Shown: positions 3,466 through 27,460 of the stretch, in pieces
Layout: the number at the start of each line of letters is the position of its first letter
How positions within the stretch are numbered: position 1 is the stretch's first letter
Origin: an uncultured Spirochaetaceae bacterium
Lineage (GTDB): Bacteria; Spirochaetota; Spirochaetia; DSM-27196; SLST01
Length of the DNA: 64,000 nucleotides
NCBI GenBank assembly: GCA_964625715.1
Contig: CAZVEF010000001.1
Location: forward strand, 52,030-116,029
Direction: 5' to 3'
Position numbers and translations under genes: made by a program
Notes under the pieces: model-generated
What the model saw: only the letters and a program-made list of their open reading frames with translations
Database searches by the model: none
What the model was told of the DNA's origin: nothing

Positions 3466-5199
3466 TCAGGTTCGCCCGACGAGCGAGACGAGCTGGTCGC
3501 GGGTGAACTCGGCCCAGACCGGGCGCCCGTGCGGGCAACGCGCGTTCTTCAGCCCCAACACGCCGCGCACGATCGAGACCGCCGTCTGCGGGGCGAGCGC
3601 GTCGCCGTCCTTCACCGCCGAGCGGCACGAGAGCGAGGCGTAGAGCTCTCGCTCGAAGTCGGCCGGCCGGTCCAGCAGATCCATGAGCAGCGCGGCGAGC
3701 GACTCGGCCTCGACTGCCACCGCGGAAGGCACCGTCAACAGCTCCCATGCCCCGTCGCGTTCGGCGAGCTCGATACCCAGGCGCCGCAGCTCGTTGCGTT
3801 TCCCGCGCAACGTCTGCTCCGCACCGGCGTGAACCTCGAGCCGGACCGGAAAGAGCAGCTCCTGCCCGCCGGCTCCGGAGCGCAGGCGGTCGTAGATGAT
3901 CCGCTCGTGCGCGGCGTGCTGGTCGACGAGGTAGAGCCGGTCGCCGCGCTCGACGACGAGAAAAAGCCCCATGATCTGGCCGAGATACCGGAAGCCCGGT
4001 TCGTCGCCGGTGGGCGGTTCGGTCGCGTGGTCAACCGACGCCGTGCTGTCGCCTGCGTCGGAGCGCGGCGTCGGCGCGAGCACGCGCGAGAGGTCGAACG
4101 TTGAGCGGCCCGACGGCGCGGAGTGCGCCGACGATCCGGAGGGCTCGGCGACCGTCGATTCGCCGAACGGCAACGCCTCGCCCATCGAAACGGCACGTCG
4201 GTCGAATACGCTGAGATAGCTCGAAAGGGCTGAAACGACGCGGCGGTGGATCTCCGGAAGGTTTCGGAACCGTACTTCGCGCTTGGCCGGATGGATGTTG
4301 AAGTCCACGAGCTCCGGCTCCACGTCGACGAAGAGGTAGGCAACCGGATAGAGGCCACCGTGAAGATAGTCGCGATACGCGTATTCTACGGCCTGAACGA
4401 GCGCGAACTCCCAGACGCGGCGCCGATTCACGAAGACCTGCAGCGCCTTGCGGTCCTTCCGCGGAGCGGTCGGCTCGCCCGCCACAATGACGGCGCGGAA
4501 GCCCTCGCCGGCGGCCTCGATCTCGTGCAGCATCGCCGGTTCGGTGCGCTGCGGATAGGCGGCGGCGATGCGCTCGACCCGCGCGGCTTTCGGCAGCACG
4601 CTCTTGAGCTCGCCGTTCGACGCGAGGCGGAACTCGACGTGGGGGAACGCGAGCGCCTTGTCCAGGAAGACCGACCGCGCGGTCGTGAATTCGCTGCCGG
4701 GGCGCTTGAGGAACCGCCGCCTCGCGGGAACGTTGTAGAAGAGATCGGCGACCGCCACGCTCGTGCCCGGCGCGCCGGGAGCGGTTTCGAGCGCCGCGAC
4801 GCGCCCCGCCTCCACGCGGAGGCGGTGGGGTGTCTCGTCGGGCGGTGCGCTCGTGATTTCCAGCCGGCTGACCGCGGCCACGCTCGAAAGCGCTTCGCCC
4901 CGGAAGCCGAGCGTTCGAACGCGGAGAAGGTCGTCGTCGGTCGCGATTTTGCTCGTGGCGTGCGGGAGGACCGACCGTTCGAGGTCGTCTCTGCCCATGC
5001 CGTACCCGTCGTCGACGACGCGGATGAGCTCGGTACCGCCGGCCTCGAGCCCGACCTCGACTCGCGAGGCACTCGCGTCGAGGCTGTTGTCGAGGAGCTC
5101 TCGTACGACCCCCGCCGGACGCTCGATGACCTCGCCGGCGGCTATCTTGCGAGCCACCGACGGGTCGAGGATGCGGATGCACGATGCGCCCTCGCTCAT
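3466..5199 (-). CDS. mutL: DNA mismatch repair protein MutL
   Basis: GHKL ATPase motifs are present: IRILDPSVARKIAAGEVIERPAGVVRELLDNSLDA, VVDDGYGM, TLGFRGEALSS. The C-terminal dimerisation region contains FLVVERGDRLYLVDQHAAHERI and CPHGRP. Confidence 0.95.
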   Translation of the reverse strand: MSEGASCIRILDPSVARKIAAGEVIERPAGVVRELLDNSLDASASRVEVGLEAGGTELIRVVDDGYGMGRDDLERSVLPHATSKIATDDDLLRVRTLGFRGEALSSVAAVSRLEITSAPPDETPHRLRVEAGRVAALETAPGAPGTSVAVADLFYNVPARRRFLKRPGSEFTTARSVFLDKALAFPHVEFRLASNGELKSVLPKAARVERIAAAYPQRTEPAMLHEIEAAGEGFRAVIVAGEPTAPRKDRKALQVFVNRRRVWEFALVQAVEYAYRDYLHGGLYPVAYLFVDVEPELVDFNIHPAKREVRFRNLPEIHRRVVSALSSYLSVFDRRAVSMGEALPFGESTVAEPSGSSAHSAPSGRSTFDLSRVLAPTPRSDAGDSTASVDHATEPPTGDEPGFRYLGQIMGLFLVVERGDRLYLVDQHAAHERIIYDRLRSGAGGQELLFPVRLEVHAGAEQTLRGKRNELRRLGIELAERDGAWELLTVPSAVAVEAESLAALLMDLLDRPADFERELYASLSCRSAVKDGDALAPQTAVSIVRGVLGLKNARCPHGRPVWAEFTRDQLVSLVGRT

Positions 5200-5227
5200 G
5201 CGGCTATACTACCGCGACTGCGCGCCT

Positions 5228-5259
5228 AGAAAAAGGGCCGGCTTCGAAGAAGCCGGCCC
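5228..5259 (-). terminator. Intrinsic terminator ending the 13941..5290 operon
   Basis: Perfect 11-bp stem GGGCCGGCTTC / GAAGCCGGCCC (5235-5259) with a 3-nt loop. On the minus strand it is followed by TTTTTCT (plus-strand A-run 5230-5234). It lies about 30 nt after the stop at 5290. Confidence 0.75.
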
Positions 5260-5289
5260 TGGGAATGCCTGCGCTCGGAAGGCGAGCGA

Positions 5290-7608
5290 TCAGAATCCTC
5301 CACCCGAGCCGATGCGGGTCTCGATGCTGATGACCGGGCCGAACATCGGGTAGAGCTCGCCGTTGCGCCTCTCGTATCTGACGTTTCCGGTCTCGTCGCG
5401 GAGGACCGTCGTGGTGACGGTTCCCACGATGTCCATGATGGGGGCGACGGGATAGACGATCTCACCCTTGAGCACGGTATTCGCGTCGAACAGGCGCGCG
5501 CCCTCGAACCCGGTCTTGTCGATCAGCGTCGGAACGAAGCTGGTTCGCTCGTAGGCGAAGCTCGCGCTGATGTCGAGGGGGAGCAGACCTTCACGAAGCT
5601 CGAGACTCGTAAGCAGGTAGTCGTCGTCGCCCATTTCGATCGCGTCGGTTTCCGCACTCCGTGTCCACGGCCAGAGGTAACCGGCGTCCAGCCGGACGAC
5701 CCGTGCGATCGTAAGCCCGGCCTCACCGTAGATCCCGAGCGTCTCGTTCTTGTACTCGCTCGCCCCCGGATTCTGGAGGTAGTCGACCGTCCGGCGGACC
5801 TTGTCGCCGCTCGTGCGGTCGTAGTTCGCGTCGTAGAACGCCGGCTCGAAGATGCCGTGGTCGTTCTGGAACTCGAGTCTGAAGTCGAGCAGCGAGACGT
5901 TTCCGAACACTCCGGAGGCGATGCCGTAGTTGCGCAGCTCGGTACCGGCCGCGGTCTCCTGGATCAGCGCCTGGGTCTGCAAACCCGCGTCGAGCCCACC
6001 CGCCGAACGGCGCAGGTAGGGCAGCAGTCCTCCCACGTCGCCGAAGAGCACGAGCGAGAACGCGTCGCGTTCGATCACCGGCAGGTCGAGATCCAGCCCC
6101 ACGTTGAGGAAGACCGGATCGACGGTGCGCTCGGTCTCGAAGACCGTCGCTCCCTCGTCGTCCGCTTCCGGCAGATCCGAGGCGGGTGCGATGTCTGTGA
6201 CGCCGCTCACGCCGACGGCGAGCGGGAAGCCGTCGAGGGGGCGCGCGTAGAGCCGCGTTCCGAAGATCTCCGGCGCGGCGAGGTCGTTCGTGAGGACCTC
6301 GAAGCCGGCTCGGCCGAAATCGATACCCACGTTGAACCCGATGCGCCGGATCGCGGGGAACTCGATGTCGTTCGCGTAGTTGCGCATGAGCAGCCCGTGC
6401 CCGAGGGTGAGCGTGTTGAGGTTGCCCACCTTGAGGAAGAACGGGTCGCGCATCTCGCCCCATTCGATGAACCTGATCTTGAGCGCGATATCGCCGGTGA
6501 GGTCGCCCATCGCGCCGAGCGTGTCGTTCCGCCAGTCGTGATCGGTGCCGAAGGACCACTCGTCGTTGCCCTCGGGCTTGTACCAATCGTCGCGGTCGAA
6601 GAGATTGCCCGTGTAGATCACCGGGAGGTAGAGTCCGGCGCGGAGCTTGCCGATCCGGAAGGTCGGCTGGGCGACGAGCTTGCTGTACGTGCTGCCTTCG
6701 AGGCTGATCGAGCCGATTTCGAGCTCGAGCACGTCGGTGAGGCCTGCCATGAACTCGTCGACAGGCCCGTCGTCTTCGTCGTCAGCGGTGCTGTCGTCGG
6801 GTTCGGTCGGCGTAGCGGGCTCCTGCGGTTCCACGACGACGGCGTCGCCGGAGTCGACGTCCGAATCGGCCTCGTCGTCCGTCTGTTCGGCCTCGGCCGG
6901 CTCTTCCTCTTCAATCGGATCTTCGTCGGCCGACGGCTCTTCCTCGCCGACGCCGAGCTCCTCGAGTACCTGCTGGCGCGCGTTCTCGGTCTGCTCGGAG
7001 AGTTGCTCGAGCGAGCCGTAGAACTGCTCGGCAACGTCCGCCTGCGCGGCGGCGAACGAGGCGGCGAGCGCGTTGGCGAACTCGTTCGCCTGAAGCGAGA
7101 CGGTCGAGCCGGCCTCGTTCGTGAACTCCACGACCCCTTCGCGCACGGCGACAATCTCGTCGCCGGCCGCGACCTGCGTCACGAAGTCGGTGCCGCGAAC
7201 ACCTCCGACGGCTGTCGGGGTTCGTACCTCGAAGCCTCGTCCGGTGCCGGTGAGGTTCGACACGACGCTCCTCAGACGACCGGTCGCCACCGAGACGACG
7301 TCGTCGCCGGAGGAGGCTCCGCGCTCAAGCACGCTTTCGATCTTGATCTCCGTGCTGTCTGCGAGCTTGAGCGCGTGTCCGTTGGGAAGCAGGATCTCGG
7401 CGAACCCATCGAACGTCTTGACGACGTAGTTCAGATCGAGTCGGTAGCCGAAGTCGAGCAACCCGTCCTGCGAGTCCTGCAATTCGAAGAGCTCGCCGTC
7501 GACGCGTTCGTAGACGCGGACGTCGCCCTCGTAGTAGACGAGCTCCTGCGCGGTTGCAATGCCGCCGAAGAGCGCGAGCACGATGCAAAGTACCGTAATC
7601 CGTCTCAT
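5290..7608 (-). CDS. Secreted FecR-domain protein fused via an acidic linker to an outer-membrane barrel-like domain
   Basis: Start moved to the internal ATG 7608 (MRRITVLCIVLALFGGIATAQ signal peptide, GGAGG 7 nt upstream). FecR-like segment: FAEILLPNGHALKLADSTEI...VRTPTAVGGVRGTDFV. The D/E-rich linker is EEEPSADEDPIEEEEPAEAEQTDDEADSD. The C-terminal half alternates hydrophobic residues and ends ...IETRIGSGGGF, an aromatic terminal residue like OMP beta-signals. Confidence 0.85.
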   Translation of the reverse strand: MRRITVLCIVLALFGGIATAQELVYYEGDVRVYERVDGELFELQDSQDGLLDFGYRLDLNYVVKTFDGFAEILLPNGHALKLADSTEIKIESVLERGASSGDDVVSVATGRLRSVVSNLTGTGRGFEVRTPTAVGGVRGTDFVTQVAAGDEIVAVREGVVEFTNEAGSTVSLQANEFANALAASFAAAQADVAEQFYGSLEQLSEQTENARQQVLEELGVGEEEPSADEDPIEEEEPAEAEQTDDEADSDVDSGDAVVVEPQEPATPTEPDDSTADDEDDGPVDEFMAGLTDVLELEIGSISLEGSTYSKLVAQPTFRIGKLRAGLYLPVIYTGNLFDRDDWYKPEGNDEWSFGTDHDWRNDTLGAMGDLTGDIALKIRFIEWGEMRDPFFLKVGNLNTLTLGHGLLMRNYANDIEFPAIRRIGFNVGIDFGRAGFEVLTNDLAAPEIFGTRLYARPLDGFPLAVGVSGVTDIAPASDLPEADDEGATVFETERTVDPVFLNVGLDLDLPVIERDAFSLVLFGDVGGLLPYLRRSAGGLDAGLQTQALIQETAAGTELRNYGIASGVFGNVSLLDFRLEFQNDHGIFEPAFYDANYDRTSGDKVRRTVDYLQNPGASEYKNETLGIYGEAGLTIARVVRLDAGYLWPWTRSAETDAIEMGDDDYLLTSLELREGLLPLDISASFAYERTSFVPTLIDKTGFEGARLFDANTVLKGEIVYPVAPIMDIVGTVTTTVLRDETGNVRYERRNGELYPMFGPVISIETRIGSGGGF

Positions 7609-7622
7609 AGAAGCCTCCGGTA

Positions 7623-9053
7623 TTAGAAGAGGGAGATCGCCGTCTCGAGCTTGGAGGTGATGACCCACGGATCGTCGCCCGGTTCGGGGAACGGGTCGTA
7701 CTGCAGGTCGTAGACGAGCGAGATCACCGCGCTCTCGATCCGGTAGTTGACGCGCGCTCCGATCACCGAGTCCTCCGGACTTACGAGGTCTGCGAAGTCC
7801 TCGATACCCTTCTTGTCGTAGCTCGCCTCCATGCTGAATCCGCCGAGGATGCCCTCGCCGAGCATGAAGGTGGCGAGCAGATGCGGTTGCTTGAACGTGT
7901 CGTCCGGGTCGGCGCCGCCGAACGGGCCGTCGACGTTCGCGGCAAACACGAGCTGGTCGTCGAGCAGCGAGAACCCGGCACTCGCGAACCAGCCGACGTA
8001 GGAGTCGGTACTGAATCCGTCGACGCCGGCGTAGTAGGCGTACTTCCGGTGTCTGAACAGATCGTAGGACCGATCGAAGTAGACCGGGATGAAGTCCTCG
8101 CCGAGGAAGCGCAGCTGCGCGCCGTAGGTCATCACGCGGAACAGCCGCCCTCCGAAGCCGAGCATGCCGCCGGAGTTACCGCCCTGGTTGACGTAGTCGC
8201 CGAAACCGGCGAGCGAGACGAGGTCGTTGTTGAGCACCGGCATGCGGAAGTCGATGCCCCAGACGAGCGCCTTCGCGGCACTCTGCGACGTGCCTGCCGG
8301 CAGGAAGTCGGATACGCTCGCGCTCGGGTTGTCCTCCAGAGTGTCCTCGACGTAGTGGAACGGCTTGCGATCGCTCACAACCGTGCCTCCGAGCTGCAGG
8401 TTCCGGACGATGGGCAGCGCGGTTGCGGCGAGCGGTCGGACGAAGAGTCTGCTGCCGATCAGGTCGAACACCGCGAGGTTACCCACGAAGGTCTCGACGC
8501 CTGCGAACGGGAAGTCGAAGAGCCGTCCGTCCACGTCCAGGCTCATGCCGAAGATCCGCTGGTCGGGCAGGAACTGCGTATTCGTGTAGCCGCCCATGAT
8601 GAAGCCGTTGCCCAGCAGGCCGTTGTCGACCTGTCCGAGCAGCACGTAGAGCGGGTCGCCCTTCTGCGCCCAGCGGACGTAGCGCAGCTTCGGCAGGTAG
8701 AGCTCGAGGAAGCTCGTCTCGTCGTCCGGTACCCAGTCGGCGGCGCGCACCTCGAACCCGGTGTCGTCTTCGGCGTCGAATCGATAGTTGAGCGTGAGGT
8801 CGAGTCCCAGCCCGAACTTGCCGATGCCGATGTCGGGCGTCAGCCCGACCGACTGGTAGGTGATGGTCTTGTCGGTCGCTTCGGTTCCGTCGTAGTCGGG
8901 GTTCGGGAAGCTCTGGGCGCCAATGGTGATACCCAGCCCGACATCGGGCCCGACTCCTTCGCCTTGCGGTTCGTCGCCTTCCAGGTCTTGCGCGAAAGCG
9001 CCGAGAAGCGCCACGAAGGTCAGAAGCACCACGGATGCGGTCAATCGCTTCAT
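7623..9053 (-). CDS. Secreted outer-membrane barrel-like protein, paralogous to the C-terminal half of 5290..7608
   Basis: GGAGGG RBS and signal peptide MKRLTASVVLLTFVALLGAFAQ. The protein is G/Y/F-rich with an alternating pattern and ends ...SKLETAISLF. Similarity blocks to the neighbouring gene are clear (LRYVRWAQKGDPLYVLLGQVDNGLLGNGFIMGGYTN vs IRFIEWGEMRDPFFLKVGNLNTLTLGHGLLMRNYAN; LIGSRLFVRPL vs IFGTRLYARPL). Confidence 0.85.
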   Translation of the reverse strand: MKRLTASVVLLTFVALLGAFAQDLEGDEPQGEGVGPDVGLGITIGAQSFPNPDYDGTEATDKTITYQSVGLTPDIGIGKFGLGLDLTLNYRFDAEDDTGFEVRAADWVPDDETSFLELYLPKLRYVRWAQKGDPLYVLLGQVDNGLLGNGFIMGGYTNTQFLPDQRIFGMSLDVDGRLFDFPFAGVETFVGNLAVFDLIGSRLFVRPLAATALPIVRNLQLGGTVVSDRKPFHYVEDTLEDNPSASVSDFLPAGTSQSAAKALVWGIDFRMPVLNNDLVSLAGFGDYVNQGGNSGGMLGFGGRLFRVMTYGAQLRFLGEDFIPVYFDRSYDLFRHRKYAYYAGVDGFSTDSYVGWFASAGFSLLDDQLVFAANVDGPFGGADPDDTFKQPHLLATFMLGEGILGGFSMEASYDKKGIEDFADLVSPEDSVIGARVNYRIESAVISLVYDLQYDPFPEPGDDPWVITSKLETAISLF

Positions 9054-9120
9054 CGGAGTCCCTCCTCAAAGCCTGAGTATAGTACCGGCTAGCTCAAAAA
9101 ACCATGGCGATCGGCGGCAA

Positions 9121-12100
9121 TCAGAGGCGCAGACGTCCCTCGATCCCCACGCGAAGCCCCACGAGCGTGCCCGGCTCCCCGGCGAAGGTCTGCGTCCCGG
9201 CGCCGAATCCGCCGTGCAGTCGAATCGTTCCCGCCTCGTCGAAGCGCAGGCTCGTTGCGTGCTCCAGACGCGCGAGCAGGCGGTCGCCCGGCGTCTGATC
9301 GTACTCGACGGTCAGGCTCGACTCGTGCTCGATCGTACCCTCGGCCTCCGCGAGCACGCGCGGCAGCAGCGGGCCGGCGAAGCGCTCGGTCGGACGCGAG
9401 CGCAGGTGCGCGAGCCGAACGGTGAGCTGTCTCGTCCCGTCGTCCGGAACGACCGTCGTCACGAAGGTCTCGAGCTCGACCGAACGGTCGTCGGTCCAGA
9501 TGAGCCGGGTCGACTGGCTGAAGCCGATAGCGGTCTCCCACGGTGCCCCGTCGCCGCCGGTGACCTCGAGGCGGGCCCGCGACTGGAACTCGTCGCTGTC
9601 GTAGAAGCCGAACAGCGGCCGCACGCCGAGGCGACCGAAGAGGTTGGGCGCGACGAGCAGCGCTTGGCCCGACAGCTCGTAGGAGCTCGTCGCCGCGTCG
9701 AGGTCGCGCCGCGCCGGCCGCGCGGCGGAGAGCTCCACGCCGGTCGGGACGAGGAGCGACCACGGCGAGCTCGTGATCCCGCGTCGTGCTTCGAGCGAGA
9801 GCTGCGGGCGGTAGCGCGACGCGAGCAAGCCGAGGCTGAGATCCGCCGAGCGCTCCGGGTAGTCGCCGGCGAAGAGCTCGGCGAGGGGGACGAAGGCGAC
9901 GACGAGTGGATAGTCGGCGAGGAGCTCGGCCGCCGCGGCGACGTCGTCGGCCGGGCGGGGTCGGGGTGCGCCTTCGGTCTCGATCGAGAGCTCGCGGCGG
10001 GCCTTGACCGAAACGTCGAACCGGTCGCCGGCGCGCCACGGCACCCCCAGCTCGAGGAAGGTCTCGACGCCGCGCCGGGCCGCCGCGGCGTCGGCGTCGA
10101 AAGACGAGCCGGCCGCGGCGTCGAGCCCGACGCCCGCGAAGGCGAGCGAGCCCTCGAGGCTCGCCGACGCGTCGCGCTGCTGTGGCGAGGCGGTCGGGGC
10201 GAGCCTCGAGAAGCTTCGGGTCCACGCGACCGGGTAGGGGGGGGCACCGTCGGCCGTCGCGGAGGTCTCGCTGAGCTCGGCGTGAGCGCCGACGGTGACG
10301 CCGGGCGAGCGGCGCTCTGCCGGATCCTCGTCCCGGTCTCCGGCAACCTGCGTGGAATCGCGGGTCCGGGCAGCGGTTCCTCCGGCGCTCGCCGAGGCGG
10401 ACCACGCGACCCGGCTCGAGTCGCGCTGAACGCTCACCCAGTCGGTCTCGACGACGCCGATCGCCGGAATCGTGAGCTCGAAGCTCGTCTCGTGCGAGGT
10501 GCCGGGCCCGAAGACGCCGTATCCGGCTTGAAACGAGTCGACCAGTCGCAGCGGGACTACCCGCGGCGCCATCGTGACCTCGTGGCGGCCCTGGAGTCCG
10601 GTGCCCGCCGAGACCGTCCGAGCGTCGAGTCCGGCGGCCGCCTGCGCGCCGAGCACGGTGGCCGAGACGTCGGTCGAGCTCTCGAGGCCGCTTCGCCTCG
10701 CGTCCGGGTCGTCCGGCAAGCTCGCCGTCTCGGCGTGAAGCCGCTGCTCGACGGCAACATCCGAAAGCACGTTCGTCCCGTCGACGGTGATCTCGACATC
10801 CGGCCTCCACGCGAGCTCGGCCTGCGCGACCGCGCCGACGCTCGTCCTCGGTCCCCAGAACGAGAGCTCGTCGAAGAGCACGACCGCCTCCTCGACGCCG
10901 TTCGTCGCGATCTCCACGTCGATGCGGCGCACGACCGCGTCGACGTCGGTCGGCAGCGGAAGCGAGAGCTCGTGCCACGCGCCGTCGGCTACGATCGCCG
11001 GTTCGGCGAGCTCGGCCTCGAAGGCGCCGTCGCCGTCGCTCGCGCGCACCATGATCTCCGCGCCGGCGGCCTGCGCCGACGGCGCGCGGTAGTAGATCCG
11101 CAGCTCCTCGTAGTCGGCAGCCCGGACCGCGGTTGCTCGGCTGAGCGTGATGGTGTCCCCCGTGCCGGCGTCGTCCCAGCCGACCCGGAGCACGCGCTGC
11201 TCCGGGTCCTCGTCGGTCAGCCGGGAGGCGACCTGCGGGAATGCCTTTCCGAGCCGGTCGGCGTTCGCTTCGGTCTCCGGGAAGACGCTCGTCGTGACCT
11301 CCGGAGGGCTCCCGGAGGCTTCGACCGAGAACTCCGACCCGAAGACGTCGATCGCACCCACGACGATCTTCCCGGCTACCGCGTCCCCGGCCGTAGCCGG
11401 CTCGATCACGACGCGCATGGCGCGGGTGTCGGCGAGGCGGCGTGCCTCGGCGGCGGTGAGGTCGATCTCGAGCTCCTGCCAGCCGGCTCCGTCGTCGGTG
11501 AGGTCGTCTTCGTCGACCGGGTGCGCCAAGACGAGGTCGGGGAGCTCGGGGTCGAGTACGCCGTTGCCGTTCGCGTCCTCGCTGTAGGTGAGACCCGCCG
11601 GTGGCGGCGCGCCGGTGGCGAGCGTGAAGCCGTTCGACGAATCGTGGAAGGCAAGCGCGTCTGCTCCGGTGTCGCGCGTGCCGTCGCCGTCGAGGTCCTC
11701 GCCGATCGCGCCGAGCTCGAACGTCAGCCGGGCGGCCTCCGGGGAGGCCTCGACGACGCGGTACGGCACGACGATCCGGCGCGCATCCGAGAGGTCGGTG
11801 CCGCGGCCACCGTCGATGCGGACGAGACCAGCGACCCAGCTCCGGTCGGAAGGGATCTCGTAGTCGAACACCGCGACCGTCCCGGCGTAGTCGTCGTCGG
11901 GCGGCGTGCTCGCCGGGTACGGGCCGCCGCGTCCGCCGGCGGCGTACTCGGAGGGGGACACCGCCTGAGGGTCGGCGGTGTAGGGGAGGTAGCTGCGGTC
12001 GCCGAGCGCGTTTACGCTCAGGTGGTCGGCAAAGTGCAGGAACCCGCGTCCGCCGGCGGAGAGGTCGGGGCCGGGGCCGGCGTCGAGGCTGCGCGGGGCG

Positions 12101-13941
12101 AGGAAGAGCGCGGTCGGCGAGACCGGAAAGGAACGCGCACCGTCGTTCATCCCGGCCACGCGAAGCACGCCGGAGGTGTCAGGGCTCGAAAGCGAGACCG
12201 CGCCGGCGAGGTGCGCGTCGAGCTCGCTCGGCGGAGGGGTGCGCCACGAGGAGCTTCGGGTCTCCACCGAACCCGATAGCGTGAGGCGTCCGGGGTATTC
12301 GTCGGCGCGCGTCGAGTAACGTGCCCGCGAGGGTTTCAGACGAGCGCCGAGCGCGAGCTGCGCGTTCGTCCCCGGTGCGAGCTCGAAGCGGTTGCCGCTC
12401 GCGAACAGCAGATCTTCCGCGCCGGAGGCGGCGGAGGTACGGAAGGAGACGCGCACGACGTCGGTGCGGCGCAGCGGAGTATCGAAGACGATGCGTCCCG
12501 AATCCTCGACGACGAACCGCGTCTCCACCGTGCCGTTCCGTTCGATCCGGACGCTGCCGGGGATGAACTCCTCGGGCAGCTCGATCGTCTCGGCCGGCGT
12601 GACGCTGCGGAACACGAGGTCGGGCGTCTGCGGCGGCTCGGCGGGCGCCGGCCCGTAGATCCCGGGAACCGGGCGCTCGGCGAGCTCCGAGGCGAGCGGG
12701 TAGCGGTTCTCGAAGGCGCGCGGATCGCCGGCGAGCGAGCCGACCGTCACGGTCTCGCGGGCGTCGGAGACGACGAGGTCGAGCGAGCTCGGGTAGCGCG
12801 AGCCGGGGGCCGCCTCGAGCTCCACGGTGCCGCCGGCGGACTCCGGACGCTCGTACGTCGCGGCGGTCGCGAACGGCGAGAACCGGCCGGGCTGGTGGAT
12901 CAGGAACGCCTCGCGGTCCGTGCCGTCGCCGGTGAGCGTGACGGTGAGCTCGTCGGGATCGAGCGGCTCGAACAGCTCGGCGTAGTTGCGCAGCTCGGTG
13001 GACTCGAAGCTGAAGTCGAGCACGGTGTCGGGATCGGGCCGGCCGTCGGCGTCGAGGCCGAAGCAGGAAGCTCTGCCGAGCGCAGCGTCTCCGATCGGCA
13101 CGCCTCCGGCCTCGTAGTAGACGAGCAGGCGCGTAGTCGGCGCCTCCCGGAGGCTGAACACGCCGTCGGCAAGTGAAAAGACGACCTCGGTGTCCAGGTC
13201 GAGGAGACGGTAGCGCCGACCGTCGCCGTCGGTAAAGTCGCCGCTCGGGCTCTCCAGGTAGAGCTCGAGGGAATCGAGGCTACCGTCGGGCAGGACGAAG
13301 TGCCGGTTGCGTTCGTACTCACTCGCCGACACGCGCGTCTCGCTGACGATCCCGCCATCCGCGTAGACGATCTCCTCGCGCTCACTCGGCGCGTACCGCA
13401 CCATGAGCTCGTGCGTGCTGCGCCCGGTGCGAAACGCGGCGCTCGCGCCCGGCGCGTCCTGGCCTACCGAACCGGTCTCGTCGCCGAAGTCGAGGAAGGG
13501 GTAGGTGCCGATCCCGATCGCCGTGTTCCCCGCGAGTACCGACTGCACCGTCTCGTCCTCGCGGCCCGCGTATCCGAAGAGGATCGTCGACTCCTCTATC
13601 TGCTCGCTCACGGTGGTTTCGAAGAAGTAGCGCTGCAGGAGCCACAGCGAGAGCGTGAGGTTGACCTGTTGCTCGAAGGGAACCGACTCGAGCCCCGGAA
13701 AGTCGTAGCCGGGAAGCGAGCGCAGCGATCCGTCGTCGGTGCGGCTCATGAGCCAGCCGACCGCCGGCGCGAAGCCGGTGGTCCAGGTACCGGTTGCGAA
13801 CAGAGACACATCGGCATCCCCTATCTCGAAGTCGTAGAGCGCAGACGGAGCCTCGGTCTCGAAGGGATTCGGCGGTGCATCGGCGGCGAGCGGGACGAGG
13901 CCGAGGGCTGCGAGGGCGAGGAGGGCTATGCGGGAACGCAC
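9121..13941 (-). CDS. Giant (1606 aa) secreted / outer-membrane protein of unknown function
   Basis: Uninterrupted ORF with GC3-rich codon usage and a GTG start. The signal peptide is MRSRIALLALAALGLVPLAADA. There are no internal TM helices, and the protein is rich in beta-type G/S/T/D/alternating segments. It ends ...GLRVGIEGRLRL. Confidence 0.9.
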   Translation of the reverse strand: MRSRIALLALAALGLVPLAADAPPNPFETEAPSALYDFEIGDADVSLFATGTWTTGFAPAVGWLMSRTDDGSLRSLPGYDFPGLESVPFEQQVNLTLSLWLLQRYFFETTVSEQIEESTILFGYAGREDETVQSVLAGNTAIGIGTYPFLDFGDETGSVGQDAPGASAAFRTGRSTHELMVRYAPSEREEIVYADGGIVSETRVSASEYERNRHFVLPDGSLDSLELYLESPSGDFTDGDGRRYRLLDLDTEVVFSLADGVFSLREAPTTRLLVYYEAGGVPIGDAALGRASCFGLDADGRPDPDTVLDFSFESTELRNYAELFEPLDPDELTVTLTGDGTDREAFLIHQPGRFSPFATAATYERPESAGGTVELEAAPGSRYPSSLDLVVSDARETVTVGSLAGDPRAFENRYPLASELAERPVPGIYGPAPAEPPQTPDLVFRSVTPAETIELPEEFIPGSVRIERNGTVETRFVVEDSGRIVFDTPLRRTDVVRVSFRTSAASGAEDLLFASGNRFELAPGTNAQLALGARLKPSRARYSTRADEYPGRLTLSGSVETRSSSWRTPPPSELDAHLAGAVSLSSPDTSGVLRVAGMNDGARSFPVSPTALFLAPRSLDAGPGPDLSAGGRGFLHFADHLSVNALGDRSYLPYTADPQAVSPSEYAAGGRGGPYPASTPPDDDYAGTVAVFDYEIPSDRSWVAGLVRIDGGRGTDLSDARRIVVPYRVVEASPEAARLTFELGAIGEDLDGDGTRDTGADALAFHDSSNGFTLATGAPPPAGLTYSEDANGNGVLDPELPDLVLAHPVDEDDLTDDGAGWQELEIDLTAAEARRLADTRAMRVVIEPATAGDAVAGKIVVGAIDVFGSEFSVEASGSPPEVTTSVFPETEANADRLGKAFPQVASRLTDEDPEQRVLRVGWDDAGTGDTITLSRATAVRAADYEELRIYYRAPSAQAAGAEIMVRASDGDGAFEAELAEPAIVADGAWHELSLPLPTDVDAVVRRIDVEIATNGVEEAVVLFDELSFWGPRTSVGAVAQAELAWRPDVEITVDGTNVLSDVAVEQRLHAETASLPDDPDARRSGLESSTDVSATVLGAQAAAGLDARTVSAGTGLQGRHEVTMAPRVVPLRLVDSFQAGYGVFGPGTSHETSFELTIPAIGVVETDWVSVQRDSSRVAWSASASAGGTAARTRDSTQVAGDRDEDPAERRSPGVTVGAHAELSETSATADGAPPYPVAWTRSFSRLAPTASPQQRDASASLEGSLAFAGVGLDAAAGSSFDADAAAARRGVETFLELGVPWRAGDRFDVSVKARRELSIETEGAPRPRPADDVAAAAELLADYPLVVAFVPLAELFAGDYPERSADLSLGLLASRYRPQLSLEARRGITSSPWSLLVPTGVELSAARPARRDLDAATSSYELSGQALLVAPNLFGRLGVRPLFGFYDSDEFQSRARLEVTGGDGAPWETAIGFSQSTRLIWTDDRSVELETFVTTVVPDDGTRQLTVRLAHLRSRPTERFAGPLLPRVLAEAEGTIEHESSLTVEYDQTPGDRLLARLEHATSLRFDEAGTIRLHGGFGAGTQTFAGEPGTLVGLRVGIEGRLRL

Positions 13942-13948
13942 GTGCGGT

Positions 13949-13977
13949 ATACTATTGGGCTGCGGCGGTCATGTAAA
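13949..13977 (-). promoter_or_regulatory. Candidate promoter of the giant-protein operon (near-leaderless geometry)
   Basis: On the minus strand: TTTACA (13977-13972), 17 nt spacer, TAGTAT (13954-13949), then 7 nt to the GTG start at 13941. No Shine-Dalgarno motif lies in between. Confidence 0.35.
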
Positions 13978-14005: not shown

Positions 14006-14932
14006 ATGAACGCTGAACAGCAGAAGGCATCGGCATTCGTCTCCAGGCTCCTCGCCAACCCCGCGCTGAAGGCGTTGACGCCGCTGCAACGCGAGGAACA
14101 GATCATCCAGTTCCTCCATACCAACGCGGCGCAGCTCGCGCCGACGCTGAGCTCGCAGGCGTTCTTCCCCGGGAAGTCCTGGAACCAGATAATAGCACTT
14201 CTGATGCAGGCTCTCATGGAGCACGTCGACGGCGAGCTCATGCCGCAGCTTGACACCATCGTATCGGGTATTCGCTTCGGGTTCATGAGCGTGCTGCGAC
14301 AGCAGGCCGCCGCCGGCGGTGATGCGGGTGTGCAGGTGGGCTCCTTCATCCGCGGGGTGCTCGCGCGTATGGATGCGCGGCGCACCTTCACCGGCGCGCA
14401 TGCAGCGCTCGCCTATGGATTCGTCCATCGATACATGGACCCCATCTGGGCCCGCAAGAGCTACATCCATTTCGAGCTGACGAAGGTACAGCGGCTGAAG
14501 CTCGGCAAGGAGGACGTCGCCTCGATGATCGAGGTGACGCTTCTGTTGAAGCCGGTCGTGAACCTCGTTTCGGCGGTCGGGGGCGGTGTTCAGTCGGAGC
14601 AGACCTCCGGAATCGTCGACCAACGGTTCGCCGAGAAGGTCTTCGCGGCGGCGAAGAAACAGCTGCCTGCGGTGCCGGACCAGGTGGTCAGAAGCGGCGT
14701 CAACGCCAACGTATCGTACGTGGAGAACCGCTTCATCGAGGCGACCGCCCGACTCGCGGCGGTCTTCTCGGCGCGCGCACGGAGCTACCAGCCGAACGTG
14801 GATGTCGACCGCGGCGCCGACAGCCCGGACAAGAGCTGGCTCAGCGTCGCGAGGAGGAACTACAGATTCTACGGCTTCGACCTCAAGCTCCTCGACGAGC
14901 TCTATTCGATAGCCACGGAGAACGGGTGGTAG
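14006..14932 (+). CDS. Hypothetical cytoplasmic protein (308 aa), no recognisable motif
   Basis: ATG start and GC3-rich codons. The stop is separated from the next gene's ATG (14934) by a single nucleotide, so the two are probably co-transcribed and possibly translationally coupled. I cannot name a family. Confidence 0.8.
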   Translation: MNAEQQKASAFVSRLLANPALKALTPLQREEQIIQFLHTNAAQLAPTLSSQAFFPGKSWNQIIALLMQALMEHVDGELMPQLDTIVSGIRFGFMSVLRQQAAAGGDAGVQVGSFIRGVLARMDARRTFTGAHAALAYGFVHRYMDPIWARKSYIHFELTKVQRLKLGKEDVASMIEVTLLLKPVVNLVSAVGGGVQSEQTSGIVDQRFAEKVFAAAKKQLPAVPDQVVRSGVNANVSYVENRFIEATARLAAVFSARARSYQPNVDVDRGADSPDKSWLSVARRNYRFYGFDLKLLDELYSIATENGW

Positions 14933-14933: not shown

Positions 14934-16055
14934 ATGAGTAAGACACGAGCATTCCTGGAAAACCTCGTCATCGTCGCGATCGTCCTCGTTCTCATCCAGA
15001 CCTTTCTCGAGGACTACGCGGTGCTCGCCGGATGGTCGTGGGACGTGCGACGGGCGCTGCTGTTCACCGGTTTCGCGTTCGACCTCATGTTCACGATCGA
15101 GTTCCTGACGCGGCTCTACGTCGCGTTCGTCAACCGGAGAACGGGGATCTACTTCTGGTACGAGCGGGGCTGGGTCGATCTGCTCGCCTCCATCCCGCTG
15201 CTCCTGTTCGCCTCCGGGCCGCAGGTACTCGCGTATCTCAGCGGATCGGCGACGGTCGTCGGCTTCGCCGGGATCCTGAACGTGCTCAAGGTGGTGAAGG
15301 CGATCCGCATCGCGCGGATCCTCAGGCTTCTGCGTGTGCTCAAGATCTTCGCCCGCATTCGCAATACCGAGTCGCAGATGGCACAGCGTCACGTCGCCAG
15401 GGTCGCCACCACCGCGGTCACCGTGGTTATCGGCGGTGTCCTCGTGCTGAGCGTGCTCTTCAGTGCTTTCGGCGTGCCGAGTCTCGAGACGCGCTATCAG
15501 GAACAAACGCTCGAGCTGCTCGAGCGAGTGGGCTCCTTTGATCTGTCGAACCGTTCGGCGGTGAACGAGGTCGAGGATCTCGCCGAGGTGGAAACGTCGA
15601 TCCTCGTCGTGCAGCGCGACGGTCGAACGGTCTACAGCCGGTACGAGAACGAGCACTACGAGACCCATTTCGGGCCGATCGACTACGGGTACGGCGAGCG
15701 CGGAGATGCCCGCGTGTTCTTCGATCTGAGACCGATGAACCAGGACCAGGCGCGCGCGAATCTCGTGTACTTCGCGGTGGTCGTGCTGCTCGTTCTCGTG
15801 TTCATGCTCTTCTACAGCCCGCACTTCGCGATGACGGTCTCCGATCCTGTCCACGTGATGCGACGCGGGATGAACGAGAAGGGGTACAACCTGGAGGTGA
15901 AGATCCCCCGGCTCTACCGCGACGACGAGGTCTACCGGCTCGGACGCCTGTACAACGAGGTCTTTCTTCCGCTGAAGGACCGCGCGGGCGGCGGGGACGA
16001 TGCGGATCTGCTCGATCTCAAGATGGATGACATCCGGGACATCCTGAACGAGTAG
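14934..16055 (+). CDS. Voltage-sensor-domain (Ion_trans-like S1-S4) protein lacking a pore, fused to TM-periplasmic loop-TM-HAMP
   Basis: S4 has K/R at every third position: LKVVKAIRIARILRLLRVLKIFARIR. S2 and S3 carry acidic counter-charges (FAFDLMFTIEFLTR; GWVDLLASIP). S5 is followed by a hydrophilic loop of about 95 aa, then TM6 (LVYFAVVVLLVLVFMLFY). A HAMP-like segment follows (SDPVHVMRRGMNEKGYNLEVKIPRLYRDDEVYRLGRLYNEVF). No output domain is present. Confidence 0.85.
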   Translation: MSKTRAFLENLVIVAIVLVLIQTFLEDYAVLAGWSWDVRRALLFTGFAFDLMFTIEFLTRLYVAFVNRRTGIYFWYERGWVDLLASIPLLLFASGPQVLAYLSGSATVVGFAGILNVLKVVKAIRIARILRLLRVLKIFARIRNTESQMAQRHVARVATTAVTVVIGGVLVLSVLFSAFGVPSLETRYQEQTLELLERVGSFDLSNRSAVNEVEDLAEVETSILVVQRDGRTVYSRYENEHYETHFGPIDYGYGERGDARVFFDLRPMNQDQARANLVYFAVVVLLVLVFMLFYSPHFAMTVSDPVHVMRRGMNEKGYNLEVKIPRLYRDDEVYRLGRLYNEVFLPLKDRAGGGDDADLLDLKMDDIRDILNE

Positions 16056-24045: not shown

Positions 24046-24118
24046 GGTGGCGTAGCTCAGTCGGTAGAGCAAGCGGCTCATATCCGCTTTGTCGGGGGTT
24101 CAAGTCCCTCCGCCACTA
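24046..24118 (+). tRNA. tRNA with CAU anticodon (elongator Met, or Ile2 if lysidine-modified)
   Basis: Hand-folded cloverleaf. Acceptor stem: GGTGGCG/CGCCACT (G1:U72). D stem: GCTC/GAGC. Anticodon stem AGCGG/CCGCT with loop CTCATAT. T arm: GGGGG-TTCAAGT-CCCTC. Discriminator is A and no CCA is encoded. Confidence 0.9.
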
Positions 24119-24146
24119 ATTCCCCGTTAAACTCGCGCGAAGGCGA

Positions 24147-24175
24147 TGGTCAACCTCTCGAAAACCGGCTATAAT
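24147..24175 (+). promoter_or_regulatory. Candidate promoter of the coiled-coil gene
   Basis: TGGTCA (24147-24152), 17 nt spacer, TATAAT (24170-24175), 30 nt upstream of ATG 24206. Confidence 0.3.
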
Positions 24176-24205
24176 TGCCGTGACAAGTTCTTCGGGGGGG
24201 GAACG

Positions 24206-27200
24206 ATGCAATTCTCAGGTGCAGATATCATCGTCATCGCGATAGTTCTCATCGTGCTTTACGTCTATCGCCAGCTCGATCGGAACAATCGTTCGCTCGA
24301 GAAGGTGAAGAGGTACGCCGATCGAGTGCACGAGGAGCTCGACGCGCATGTCCGGGAGAAGGTCGTCACGATCAAGGACATGGGTATCGAGCTGGAGGTC
24401 CATCAGAAGGCGGCGAAGGAGGTGCTCAAACGGGTCCAGGCGATCGAGAGCGGCCTCGACAGTCGCGCCGAGGAGATTGAGCGTATCGGCGCGCGCATCG
24501 GCGAGTACGATGCGGCGCTCGACGAGCTCGTCGAGATGACCGGCCGGGCGCAGGAGAACATCAACCGTGTGCGCGACGAGTCGTCGTACGTCGACACGGT
24601 CGGCAGGCGCATCAAGCAGAGTCAGGAACGCCTGGACACCGTGGAGAAGGGACTCGACGCGATAACCGAGCGGTTCCGCACGGAAAACGACACGCGGCTG
24701 CGCGAGGTCGAGACGGAGGTGTTCCGTGAGGCGGGTGAGCGCGTCGAATCCATGCGGGGCGAGCTGGGCGGTCTGCAGGAGCGGGTGAATCAGTTCGGCG
24801 AGTACATTCGCGGCGCCGAGGAACGAGCGGAGGCGATGACCTCCCGTACGCGCGAAGAGCTCGAAGAAATCGCGGAAACGGTTGTCCACCGCGCCGAGGA
24901 AGCTTCCATCCAGGGCTCCGAGCAGCTCGGCGAGATTCGCGAGCAGCTCGAGGCGATGGAGAGCGACTACCAGAAACGCCTTCTCCAGCTCGCCGAACGC
25001 GGCGAGCAGATGGAGACCGAGGCGCTCGCCAAGCTGCGCGAGCGGATCGAGGACGCTTCACAGGAGGTCGCGCGCGAGCTCTCCTCGCGTCTCGACCACC
25101 AGAAGCGCGCGCTCGTCGAGCGTATCGACGCCGCCCTCGCGGAAGTGGATTCGGCAGAGAAGAAGCTCGCCCAGCGCGACCGTCAGCTCGAGGCCTCGCG
25201 CGGAGAGATCGATCGGCGCATCGAGAGCTTCGGCAGCGAGCTCAACGATCGGGTACAGCGGGCCGCCGACGAGCTGCACCGATCGATCCTCGGCGAGGTC
25301 GAGGAGCAGCTCGGAGAGTACGAGTCGCAGATCAGCTATCGCTTCGAGAAGCTCGGTGACGTGGGCCAGGAGGTCGAGGAGCTCGAAGGTCGGCTGCAGG
25401 ATGCGATGGACCGGGTCGTCAACCGCGTTCAGGGCGAGTTCACCGAGTTCACCGATCGTTTCCGCGAGAGCCGCGAGAAGGACCGCTCTGACGTCGAGGC
25501 GGAGATGAACGGCGTACGCGGTCAGATGGCCGAGCTCGAGAGCGGGCTGACCGACCTCAAAAACCGCGCCTACGAGAACGTGAACGAGAAGCTGCAGGTC
25601 TTCGAGGACGAGTTCTTCGCCGACCTCAAGGAACGCCAGGTCCAGATGGAGCAGCGACTCGTCGACTGGCAGGGCGGTTTCCAGCAGGAGCTCGACGAGG
25701 TCGCGGCGAGCGCCCGGGAGGAACGGGAGCGGATCGAGGCCGAATACACGAGTCAGGTCAAGGCGCAGCTCGAGCAGCTGCAGACGTCGACCTACGGTAC
25801 GTACGAGAAGATCCAGGAAGAGGCGATCGAGTTCCAGCGGGGGATCGAGCTGCGCGTGTCCGACTCGCGTGAGCTGATCGCTTCGCTCGAACGCGAGATC
25901 GAGGACGAGATCCAGCAGCTCGCCGCGGAGTCGAAGAGTGGTCTGCGGTCGCAGTTCGCGCAGCATCGCGAGCAGATGGCCGACGAGCTCGGCGAGCTCG
26001 AACGCAACGTGAAGCAGCAGATCGACGAGCTGGGCAAGCAGTTCGACCGGAAGCGCGGAGAGCTCGAGTCGGTCCTCGAGTCGGGTCGCGACGAGGCCTC
26101 CCAATGGAAGAACCAGGTCGACCGGCAGCTCGCGAGTACGACCGCGGAGGTGAACCAGCAGATCGCGGACTTCCGGGTCTCGGTGAACGAGACGATGTCC
26201 GAGCTTCGCGACGCCTTCTCGAGCGAGCGCGACGAGGCGCTCACCGACAACCAGGCCGAGCGCGAGCGGCTGCAGCGGCAGCTCGATGAGCTGGGCGAGC
26301 AGATGACGCGCGTGTCCGACGATATGCAGTCGAGGAGCCGAGAGATGCTCGCCGAGTTCGGGGAGCGCTACTCGCACCTCAAAGTGGACGCAGAGAAGCA
26401 GGTTCGCTCGATGGAGGGCGAGCTCGAGGCGCGTATCAAGGAGTTCCGCGGGGTCGTGCAGGACAGCCGTGACCAGTTCGCGGCAAATCAGGAGCGCCTG
26501 CTCGGGAGGTTGAACGAGGAGGCGAGCACGCTCGGCGCGAATCTGCAGGAGATTCAGCGCCAGCAGAAGAGCTTCGTCGAGCAGACGAAGGTCTTCGAGC
26601 GCGCCGACGCGCTGAAGGAGCAGCTCTCCGAGGAGATCTCGGATCTGCGTGGGGACCTCGAGCGGGTGGAGGCGCAGCGCAAGGAGCTGCGCGAGATGGA
26701 AGCCCAGTTCAACCGGATACGCAAGTCGGCCGACGAGGTCGGGGAGAAGATGAATCGCTTCGTGTCCGAGAAGCGTCGCATCGACTCGCTTGAGGAGGAT
26801 TACAAGAAGCTGCTCTCGATGAGCCAGGCGGTCGAGCTCAAGCTCGAGCACGTTACCGCGAGCAACGATGCGCTGCAGGCGATGCAGGCGCAGCTTCGCA
26901 ATCTCGAGCAACTCGAGAAGGACGTCGAGGGAAAGTTCCAGCGGCTTGAGAAGAAGCGCTCGATTCTCGACCTCACCACCGAGGGGGTGGACAAGAACTT
27001 CCAGGGCCTGCAGGAGATCGAGACGCGCCTGACCGACGTCAGGTCGCAGATCGACGTGGTCCCGGAGAAGATCGAGGAGCTTGCGACCCGGCTCAACCAG
27101 CTCGCGTCGAACAAGCGCGACGCGGACGCAGCGGTGAAGCAGCTCGCGCTGCTCGACCGCACCCTCGAAGACGTCGAGGAGCGGATGGAGAATCTCACGC

Positions 27201-27460
27201 AGGCGCGCGAGTGGCTCGCGCGGACCGAGACGAGGCTCGGAGAGGTGCAGCACGAGGCCGAAGAGCAGGTGAAGCTGCTCGGCGCGATCATGAAGCAGGA
27301 CGGCGGCGGCCAGAAGAACGCCGCCGGAGCGCCGCCGGTCACGACGCGCGACACGGTGATCAAGCTCGCTCGGCAGAGCTGGAACGTCGACGAGATCGCG
27401 CGCGCGACGAGCCTCTCACGCGGCGAGGTGGAGTTGATCCTCGAGCTCGCGGCGAAGTAG
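24206..27460 (+). CDS. Membrane-anchored giant coiled-coil protein (1084 aa) with HTH-like C-terminal tail
   Basis: Start moved to ATG 24206, with a G-rich RBS. The N-terminal TM segment is ADIIVIAIVLIVLYVY. About 1000 aa of heptad-like E/R/L/Q-rich sequence follow, then a G-rich linker. The tail is TTRDTVIKLARQSWNVDEIARATSLSRGEVELILELAAK. Confidence 0.9.
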   Translation: MQFSGADIIVIAIVLIVLYVYRQLDRNNRSLEKVKRYADRVHEELDAHVREKVVTIKDMGIELEVHQKAAKEVLKRVQAIESGLDSRAEEIERIGARIGEYDAALDELVEMTGRAQENINRVRDESSYVDTVGRRIKQSQERLDTVEKGLDAITERFRTENDTRLREVETEVFREAGERVESMRGELGGLQERVNQFGEYIRGAEERAEAMTSRTREELEEIAETVVHRAEEASIQGSEQLGEIREQLEAMESDYQKRLLQLAERGEQMETEALAKLRERIEDASQEVARELSSRLDHQKRALVERIDAALAEVDSAEKKLAQRDRQLEASRGEIDRRIESFGSELNDRVQRAADELHRSILGEVEEQLGEYESQISYRFEKLGDVGQEVEELEGRLQDAMDRVVNRVQGEFTEFTDRFRESREKDRSDVEAEMNGVRGQMAELESGLTDLKNRAYENVNEKLQVFEDEFFADLKERQVQMEQRLVDWQGGFQQELDEVAASAREERERIEAEYTSQVKAQLEQLQTSTYGTYEKIQEEAIEFQRGIELRVSDSRELIASLEREIEDEIQQLAAESKSGLRSQFAQHREQMADELGELERNVKQQIDELGKQFDRKRGELESVLESGRDEASQWKNQVDRQLASTTAEVNQQIADFRVSVNETMSELRDAFSSERDEALTDNQAERERLQRQLDELGEQMTRVSDDMQSRSREMLAEFGERYSHLKVDAEKQVRSMEGELEARIKEFRGVVQDSRDQFAANQERLLGRLNEEASTLGANLQEIQRQQKSFVEQTKVFERADALKEQLSEEISDLRGDLERVEAQRKELREMEAQFNRIRKSADEVGEKMNRFVSEKRRIDSLEEDYKKLLSMSQAVELKLEHVTASNDALQAMQAQLRNLEQLEKDVEGKFQRLEKKRSILDLTTEGVDKNFQGLQEIETRLTDVRSQIDVVPEKIEELATRLNQLASNKRDADAAVKQLALLDRTLEDVEERMENLTQAREWLARTETRLGEVQHEAEEQVKLLGAIMKQDGGGQKNAAGAPPVTTRDTVIKLARQSWNVDEIARATSLSRGEVELILELAAK

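Follow-up and report, generated by a model that had tools for sequence, protein, structure and literature searches.

The 64,000 nucleotide (nt) stretch of DNA analysed here, referred to below as the window, comes from an uncultured Spirochaetaceae bacterium (assembly GCA_964625715.1, contig CAZVEF010000001.1, positions 52,030 to 116,029) and carries an operon of three co-directional minus-strand genes, which encode a giant protein of 1606 amino acids (aa) and two smaller proteins, p2 (476 aa) and p3 (772 aa). The giant protein is very probably a homologue of SprA with the SprA fold, a compact and highly diverged relative of SprA/Sov, which forms the giant outer-membrane translocon in the Bacteroidota type IX secretion system (T9SS). 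That this homologue serves together with p2 and p3 as an outer-membrane export complex is the reading favoured overall, with distinctly less assurance. SprA forms a capped 36-strand pore that takes up substrates from the periplasm and lets them out laterally on a carrier barrel; when idle, the pore is closed by a plug (PMC10994853). A preliminary description of the window, made from the sequence alone, had placed a SprA-like giant barrel in a lineage that is not known for the T9SS, and this central proposal is supported by predicted structure, by an N-terminal profile match, and by synteny.

The giant protein was modelled with AlphaFold2 in two overlapping pieces (aa 1-1200 and aa 407-1606) from a 37-sequence family alignment, without templates. 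The two models have predicted local distance difference test (pLDDT) values of 84.9 and 84.0 and predicted template modelling scores (pTM) of 0.75 and 0.60, respectively, and they agree strand for strand across their 794 aa overlap, as assigned by DSSP. In the comparison by AlphaFold and Foldseek that the preliminary description had proposed, both pieces return SprA first, and in each case the first four PDB matches are the four SprA chains of Flavobacterium johnsoniae. For aa 1-1200 these are 8gl6_A (E 7.7e-38; query TM-score, TMq, 0.59), 8gl8_A (E 1.1e-37), 6h3i_A (E 6.0e-33), and 6h3j_A (E 1.3e-23), with TMq of 0.46-0.59 over about 1650-1730 aligned columns, and the next-best matches are sandwiches of the reelin and carbohydrate-binding module (CBM) types, from E 1.5e-7. 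For aa 407-1606 the same four chains are matched with E of 8.2e-29 to 5.9e-20 and TMq of 0.39-0.44, followed by single sandwich domains at E 3.9e-8. In E, SprA is separated from every other fold in the PDB by 12 to 30 orders of magnitude. The other large barrels are far behind SprA against aa 407-1606 (LptD, E about 1e-4, TMq <=0.21; Deinococcus SlpA, E 3.5e-4; TMq at most 0.24), which argues that this is not a generic match between big barrels. Sequence identity to SprA in the Foldseek alignments is about 10 %. The first SprA structure was released in November 2018, later than the training set of AlphaFold2, which would mean that the SprA fold has not been memorised by the program.

In the predicted models there are about 26 long strands at aa 1018-1604, interrupted by one helical insertion at aa about 1330-1368, with a further 4 at aa 509-586 and 6-9 at aa 36-205. 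This predicted total is compatible with the 36 strands of SprA. The family consensus ends in GIEGxLxF. Ahead of the C-terminal strands, the domains at aa about 690-1030 match sandwiches of the CBM4, CBM11, CBM22, and reelin types, with TM-scores to the target of 0.5-0.6.

At the level of sequence, the relationship to SprA is clearest close to the N-terminus. The sole NCBIfam match of the giant protein is to TIGR04189, the SprA model (10.1 bits, E 0.075, aa 118-217 against model positions 165-256), which is also the only NCBIfam family matched among 30 homologues, by 3 of them (best E 0.017). When a profile of aa 25-235 was searched against the PDB, SprA was the best match (E 0.051, SprA residues 202-294), and alignment of the N-terminal profile by hhalign with 23 SprA_N fragments gave 92.9 % probability and E 3.6e-7 over 93 columns. 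For comparison across the full length, three near-complete sprA genes had to be stitched from frameshifted Bacteroidota contigs, because a search with a 93 aa SprA fragment gave only short gene fragments, and the resulting profile is thin, with an effective number of sequences (Neff) of 1.9. Against this profile, aa 34-1055 of the giant protein align collinearly with SprA 123-1527 (E 2.8e-4, 939 columns, probability 41 %). The three Bacteroidota sprA genes (L092 8300-15500, L093 8393-15681, L094 8400-15300), all of which are flanked by ruvA and gcvH, are split by frameshifts into 4 to about 19 pieces in these long-read assemblies, which would explain the many short "SprA_N" fragments in public protein sets.

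Within the hhalign alignments, a series of motifs can be paired by eye. From the N-terminus, GY.G.EGE.VQSV.VGN of the giant protein is placed opposite (LE/LD)(Y/F)..EDDI...(I/L)E.GN of SprA, and DY.RGR.FVLPD opposite Y..NRH.FL; in the acidic loops, LGAIGEDLDGDG is placed opposite LGSVSEDILKDG, and SEDANGNGVLD opposite PDKEDANRD. The first of two modules, W.ELEIDL...R.MRVV...IVVGAIDVFG, is paired with WIQFKIPV...FRSIRFLRM...LRFARFELV, while the second, VVLFDELSFWGPR followed by the barrel, is paired with EIWVNELRLSDFDN, also followed by the barrel. This second module aligns with the ...VWVNELRLS of SprA (AEIWVNELRLS in the aligned row) just before the C-terminal barrel strands. The preliminary description had singled out two W-x-E-L...R-[IV]-x-[IV] modules and an EDANGNG loop as SprA-like, and their alignment with SprA motifs agrees with this: the modules are probably real features of SprA, being the closing strands of two jelly-roll domains, with the caveat that those domains also match jelly rolls of the CBM type. 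Among the 37 homologues, W821, W989, and D1024 of the two modules and D751 of the acidic loops are invariant, and E748, D749, D753, E788, and D789 of the loops are nearly so. The loops, of the D-x-D-G-D-G and E-D-x-N-G-N-G types, are conserved.

The resemblance to SprA/Sov (F. johnsoniae; 6H3I, 6H3J, 8GL6, 8GL8; TIGR04189; PF14349) therefore covers the fold of both halves, a homologous N-terminal segment, a signal peptide as read in the sequence, a predicted number of long strands compatible with 36, and, as paired by eye, an apparently common order of motifs (GY.G.E.E.VQ.V.VGN, DY...RHF.L, LG..SEDl..DG, EDAN, W....I.., and (D/N)EL before the C-terminal strands). Both are also encoded or work with smaller outer-membrane partners, which in the case of the giant protein are predicted ones. 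The differences are in size, company, and host. At about 1600 aa rather than about 2400 aa (2300-2500), the giant protein is about 800 aa, or one third, shorter, with roughly 380 extra SprA residues opposite aa 34-1055 and about 350 opposite the C-terminal part. In its operon it is accompanied by a new pair of paralogues, one of which has a FecR domain, and not by PorV, Plug, PPI, SprE, or SkpA; there are no gldKLMN-type genes near it; and its family belongs, by almost all of the named sources, to the Spirochaetota, whereas SprA belongs to the Bacteroidota and the wider Fibrobacteres-Chlorobi-Bacteroidetes (FCB) group. Since it also falls far below the cut-offs of both TIGR04189 and PF14349, the giant protein is outside the curated SprA family, though structurally and evolutionarily related to it.

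A word index retrieves 39 homologues of the giant protein, 1538-1695 aa long and without Pfam domains, which, where named, are annotated as "hypothetical protein" and come from Spirochaetaceae, Alkalispirochaetaceae, Spirochaetes, and Treponema metagenome-assembled genomes (MAGs). Searching with the N-terminal profile extends the family to 590 clusters at 50 % identity, 280 of them at E<=1e-30. The best 150 matches are all strong, the full-length ones being about 1530-1720 aa and the others fragments, while 116 matches are weak (E 1e-10 to 1e-3); Marispirochaeta aestuarii is among the named members. There are at least 284 relatives of p2, carried by 188 species-level genomes, and the best 80 carriers all belong to the Spirochaetota; Salinispira, Marispirochaeta, Gracilinema, Breznakiellaceae, Treponema sp., and Spirochaeta africana DSM 8902, in which p2 is Spiaf_1454, are among them. 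The sole named source outside the Spirochaetota is a 2871 bp contig labelled Gemmatimonadetes (L032), which carries homologues of p2 and p3. Given that all other carriers are Spirochaetota, this label is probably a binning error.

The three genes are kept together across the Spirochaetales as a strictly conserved operon. The giant gene lies immediately before p2 in 42 of the 43 species-level loci with enough upstream DNA, a FecR-bearing p3 follows p2 in 58 of 63, and mutL comes next in 43 of 47. In seven gene-called loci, in which the giant protein has 25-84 % identity to that of the window, the order is ComFB, DUF503, Ion_trans, and a 308 aa gene, the last three divergent from the operon, then the giant gene, p2, p3 with FecR, and mutL. 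The synteny of the trio, on which the preliminary description had let its SprA hypothesis depend, is conserved beyond chance, and the hypothesis is not refuted by it. Between the members of one genome pair (L001), identity is 42 % for the giant protein, 68 % for p2, and 67 % for p3, so that the giant protein evolves much faster than its partners. The family is maintained among free-living spirochaetes and is vertically inherited, with its operon among housekeeping genes.

Sequence comparison shows p2 and the C-terminal two-thirds of p3 to be paralogous (BLASTP E 6e-15; hhalign 99.8 %, E 1.3e-29, 370 columns). Profiles of the p2 and p3 families have no meaningful match among PDB sequences, and Pfam searches of 39 p2 homologues give weak matches to OMP_b-brl in 5 (best E 0.01) and to Toluene_X/FadL in 2 (best E 0.041). 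A crude count finds 13 amphipathic beta segments in p2, at a threshold that recovers 19 of the 26 known strands of the giant protein (73 %). The preliminary description had noted aromatic C-termini on both partners, and these are indeed conserved: the terminal L475 and F476 of p2 are present in at least 90 % of the 39 homologues, and the last residue of p3 homologues is aromatic or hydrophobic, with the exception of the L001 row, where it is E. That p2 and p3 are outer-membrane barrel partners of the giant protein is plausible but unproven. With PorV, a 14-strand carrier barrel of the FadL family and a docking partner of SprA, they share secretion signals, beta-rich composition, an aromatic end, and a position immediately after a SprA-like gene. 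They differ from it in that neither has significant sequence similarity to PorV or to any PDB chain, p2 is larger (about 455 mature residues), and p3 has an additional FecR domain that is predicted to be periplasmic.

In p3, the FecR domain scores above the Pfam threshold and is found in all homologous loci with gene calls, and the region is also matched by the NCBIfam models for Lsa33 and LipL45 of Leptospira. Compared with FecR-domain proteins (PF04773; Leptospira LipL45, Lsa33, Lsa19), p3 is neither an anti-sigma factor nor a lipoprotein of that type, and an acidic linker joins its FecR domain to a p2-like domain of 480 aa. Both partners also match, weakly and over the same part, the model for another Leptospira protein, ImpL63 (NF047543; E 3.4e-5 for p2, at 22.7 bits against a cut-off of 1000, and E 0.1 for p3), so that the partner superfamily probably includes ImpL63 as a distant member. 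If ImpL63, long used as an inner-membrane marker antigen, does share this superfamily, its localisation is perhaps worth a second look.

Several results weigh against the reading of the operon as a SprA-type export complex. The giant protein, at 10.1 bits, does not reach the equivalog cut-off of TIGR04189 (200 bits), and neither it nor any of the 30 homologues matches SprA_N (PF14349) at E<=1. The profile searches against SprA models that the preliminary description had suggested are thus divided in outcome, the N-terminal profile-profile match being found and the curated thresholds of TIGR04189 and PF14349 missed. Over the full length the profile-profile probability is just 41 %, a low value that is attributed to the thinness of the SprA profile. 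There are no genes for a T9SS motor, ring, PorV, PorU, or C-terminal domain (CTD) substrates in the 64 kb window, just as the preliminary description had stated, and none of these lie within ±7-10 kb of the giant gene in seven related genomes. The operon is not intact everywhere: in a Treponema MAG (L002 8001-12800) the giant gene adjoins DUF503, has neither p2 nor p3 as a neighbour, and lies near a separate TamB, and in two Spirochaetales MAGs (L065 1-5200, L066 1-10000) p2, p3, and mutL are present without an adjacent giant gene. For the partners, the OMP_b-brl and FadL matches are weak, and ImpL63, the one distant relative of p2 that has been studied, is used as a marker of the inner membrane or protoplasmic cylinder, with which it fractionates (PMC2698987); this localisation calls for caution in assuming that p2 and p3 are outer-membrane barrels.

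If the operon does encode an export complex, all three proteins would pass through Sec and be integrated into the outer membrane, where the giant protein would form a wide, externally capped pore and act as the protein-conducting channel. The smaller barrels p2 and p3 would dock on it as carrier, gate, or anchor, in roles like those of PorV, the carrier at SprA's lateral opening, and Plug, and the FecR domain of p3, hanging in the periplasm on its acidic linker, would link the complex with a partner in the periplasm or the inner membrane. Periplasmic proteins, folded or partly so, could then be handed to the cell surface. As there are no T9SS genes nearby, the pore may run without the T9SS motor, or with components that are encoded elsewhere; running without adjacent GldKLMN/PorKLMN motor-ring genes would be a T9SS-independent, and possibly ancestral, use of the SprA pore. 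By analogy with SprA, a function in protein export is slightly favoured for the giant protein. The most specific form of this proposal is that the Spirochaetales have a stand-alone SprA-type translocon without T9SS motor or ring, in which paralogous barrels, one of them tethering FecR, take the place of PorV and Plug, and which is either the ancestor from which the T9SS of the Bacteroidota was built up or the product of an ancient transfer, perhaps providing a route for surface proteins or lipoproteins. In that detail the proposal is tentative.

The closest competitor accepts the homology and disputes the function. The giant protein might be a true SprA-fold homologue of which the pore is not for protein export, serving instead in the import or surface capture of large substrates of the glycan type, by means of its two CBM-like jelly-roll domains and acidic loops on the extracellular side, or in a structural or biogenesis role in the outer membrane of spirochaetes, with p2 and p3 as accessory barrels. 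The similarity of aa about 690-1030 to CBM4, CBM11, CBM22, and reelin-type sandwiches would suit such a role, as would the conserved calcium-type acidic loops (D-x-D-G-D-G and E-D-x-N-G-N-G). However, these jelly-roll modules and loops have counterparts in the alignment with SprA and are therefore probably family features and not a new glycan-binding addition. FecR domains are classically linked to signalling in TonB-dependent uptake, and the presence of one in p3 could be taken in the same direction, yet the loci examined show no link of the operon to a TonB box, to Sus-like genes, or to glycoside hydrolases. The absence of a secretion motor or CTD substrates nearby, the placing of the operon among housekeeping genes, and its vertical inheritance also fit a pore that does not export, while protein export is the only known function of the SprA fold (PMC10994853). 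On this evidence a non-export pore is rather unlikely, although it deserves more weight than the alternatives that remain.

It is improbable that the trio is the translocon of a complete, unrecognised spirochaetal T9SS, with the motor, ring, attachment components, and CTD substrates elsewhere in the genome. The homology of the giant protein to SprA would be expected in that case, PorV/PorQ-family annotations have been made in another spirochaete, Brachyspira (10.1101/2025.01.03.631275), and the survey of T9SS genes covered the 64 kb window and the flanks of related loci. Reviews and surveys, on the other hand, place the T9SS and SprA only in the Bacteroidota or the FCB group (PMC7463736, PMC7906972, PMC12398890), and a literature search found no report linking either with the Spirochaetota. 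Neither the window nor the roughly 20 kb that surround the giant gene in seven other genomes contain anything resembling the T9SS, and p2 and p3 are not detectably PorV. Least probable of all is that the giant protein is unrelated to SprA, being TamB/AsmA-like, LptD-like, or a beta-rich adhesin, and that the match arises spuriously from the modelling or from the comparison of big barrels. That no curated model is reached, that a full-length family profile finds no match among PDB sequences by hmmsearch, and that identity is so low would agree with this. The two halves, independently modelled, nevertheless give the same unique answer, with LptD, SlpA, and TonB-dependent receptors 12 to 30 orders of magnitude behind, and they do so from template-free models made by a program with a training set older than the first SprA structure. 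The N-terminal sequence signal is an independent one, from a region outside the C-terminal model. LptD and TamB/AsmA are likewise large, beta-rich, Sec-exported envelope proteins, but the Pfam scan of the giant protein finds no domain at all, including those of TamB, AsmA, and LptD, a separate TamB gene is found beside the giant gene in the Treponema contig, and the LptD structures give the poor Foldseek scores noted above; both identities were rejected, as was a soluble beta-helix adhesin on the Pfam and Foldseek results.

The layout of the operon is much as the preliminary description had it. The three co-directional genes with gaps of 67 and 14 nt are confirmed by the open reading frames (ORFs) and by an independent gene call of the same contig (GCA_048616435.1, JBMCJH010000001.1), which has identical boundaries for all three, and the signal peptides reported for all three products can be read in the sequence as N-termini of the basic-hydrophobic-A-x-A type. 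The mechanical ORF of p3 reaches upstream to a GTG at 7668 (792 aa); the 772 aa start is preferred because the independent gene call uses it and all aligned homologues begin there. The coordinates of the genes and of features within and around them are collected in the table. The G+C content of the giant gene (window 9001-13000) is 0.71-0.73, compared with about 0.64-0.66 in p2 and p3 and 0.62-0.69 in the flanks.

Table. Genes, protein features, and putative signals of the giant-p2-p3 operon, by position in the window.
Feature	Position	Strand	Description and basis
Giant gene	9121..13941	-	1606 aa, GTG start; ORF list and independent gene call
Giant, signal-peptide-like N-terminus	13876..13941	-	About aa 1-22; sequence reading, model helix 2-14 at low pLDDT
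Giant, most conserved segment	13288..13593	-	aa 117-218, homologous to SprA_N (PF14349) at SprA residues 202-294; TIGR04189, PDB hmmsearch, hhalign
Giant, central strands	12184..12417	-	aa 509-586, four long beta strands, candidate barrel staves; DSSP, identical in both models
Giant, conserved acidic loops	11542..11724	-	aa 740-800; conservation and hhalign alignment
Giant, module 1	11338..11484	-	aa 820-868 (W821...GKIVVGAIDVFG), closing part of jelly-roll domain; conservation, hhalign, CBM4/11/22-like Foldseek matches
Giant, module 2	10852..10980	-	aa 988-1030 (W989...VVLFDELSFWG), end of second jelly-roll domain; conservation, hhalign
Giant, C-terminal strands	9124..10890	-	aa 1018-1606, about 26 long antiparallel strands, C-terminal bulk of predicted barrel; DSSP
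p2 gene	7623..9053	-	476 aa; beta-rich, secreted, highly conserved; end ...AISLF
p3 gene	5290..7608	-	772 aa from MRRITV; FecR domain, acidic linker, and p2-like domain
p3, FecR domain	7126..7410	-	aa 67-161; PF04773, E 3.5e-9, 37.4 bits against cut-off of 24
p3, acidic low-complexity linker	6739..6966	-	About aa 215-290; sequence, length varies among homologues
p3, p2-paralogous C-terminal domain	5293..6729	-	About aa 294-772, end ...RIGSGGGF; BLASTP, hhalign
Promoter-like site	13949..13977	-	TTTACA-17-TAGTAT; consensus match only
Intrinsic-terminator-like hairpin	5234..5260	-	Between p3 and mutL; 12 bp stem, 9 G-C pairs, T run

The giant gene's GTG and the divergent 308 aa gene are 64 nt apart, and the divergent promoter region that had been proposed there contains a promoter-like TTTACA-17-TAGTAT sequence; 2 sites of this type were found in 9.3 kb, where 0.3 would be expected. 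The -10 hexamer ends 7 nt from the giant GTG, which has no Shine-Dalgarno sequence before it, so that the giant transcript may be leaderless. The p2 ATG is preceded, at a distance of 7 nt, by GAGGAGG, a strong ribosome-binding site. At the other end of the operon, the strong terminator of the preliminary description corresponds to a G+C-rich stem with a T run. Beyond it, the mutL ATG (window 5199-5215, minus strand) is likewise preceded by TAGTAT and exactly 7 nt, without a Shine-Dalgarno sequence, a pattern which suggests that the giant gene and mutL, as first genes, are both leaderless and that mutL has its own promoter downstream of the terminator. In other genomes mutL starts within a few nt of p3 or overlaps it. 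A functional link of the trio to mutL was considered and rejected as unsupported, there being a terminator and a separate promoter-like site between p3 and mutL here.

On the other side of the intergenic region, the divergent 308 aa gene (14006-14932, plus strand), which has no Pfam match, is followed by an Ion_trans-family channel gene (14934-16055, plus strand), with DUF503 further on, and these three genes adjoin the giant gene divergently in most Spirochaetales loci. The 308 aa protein is better conserved than the giant protein (70 % compared with 42 % in the L001 pair), and it is possible that the two genes are co-regulated through the 64 nt that they share. The ten largest other ORFs of the window encode TPR, DnaK, PurD, PurF, M23 peptidase, ABC exporter, FtsX/MacB-type permease, and similar proteins. 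There is also a 1104 aa ORF (24146-27460, plus strand), directly after a tRNA gene at 24046-24118; it has a DUF6115-like tail and helical repeats like those of apolipoproteins A1/A4/E, which are matched at E 1.5e-17 but do not reach the Pfam cut-off.

SprA/Sov has been regarded as exclusive to the Bacteroidota and related FCB lineages, and as inseparably bound to the T9SS motor. The conserved, vertically inherited homologue described here spans hundreds of spirochaete lineages with its own pair of partners and no T9SS genes beside it, a machinery that has not previously been described in the Spirochaetota, where all members of the family are annotated as hypothetical proteins. If the reading is correct, the giant pore can exist outside the T9SS, and a natural SprA of minimal size, about 1600 aa, would be available for asking which features of the protein are essential, which bears on the origin of the T9SS. 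It would also offer a concrete and testable candidate for the passage of proteins through the outer membrane of spirochaetes, bacteria in which the export routes of surface proteins are poorly understood.

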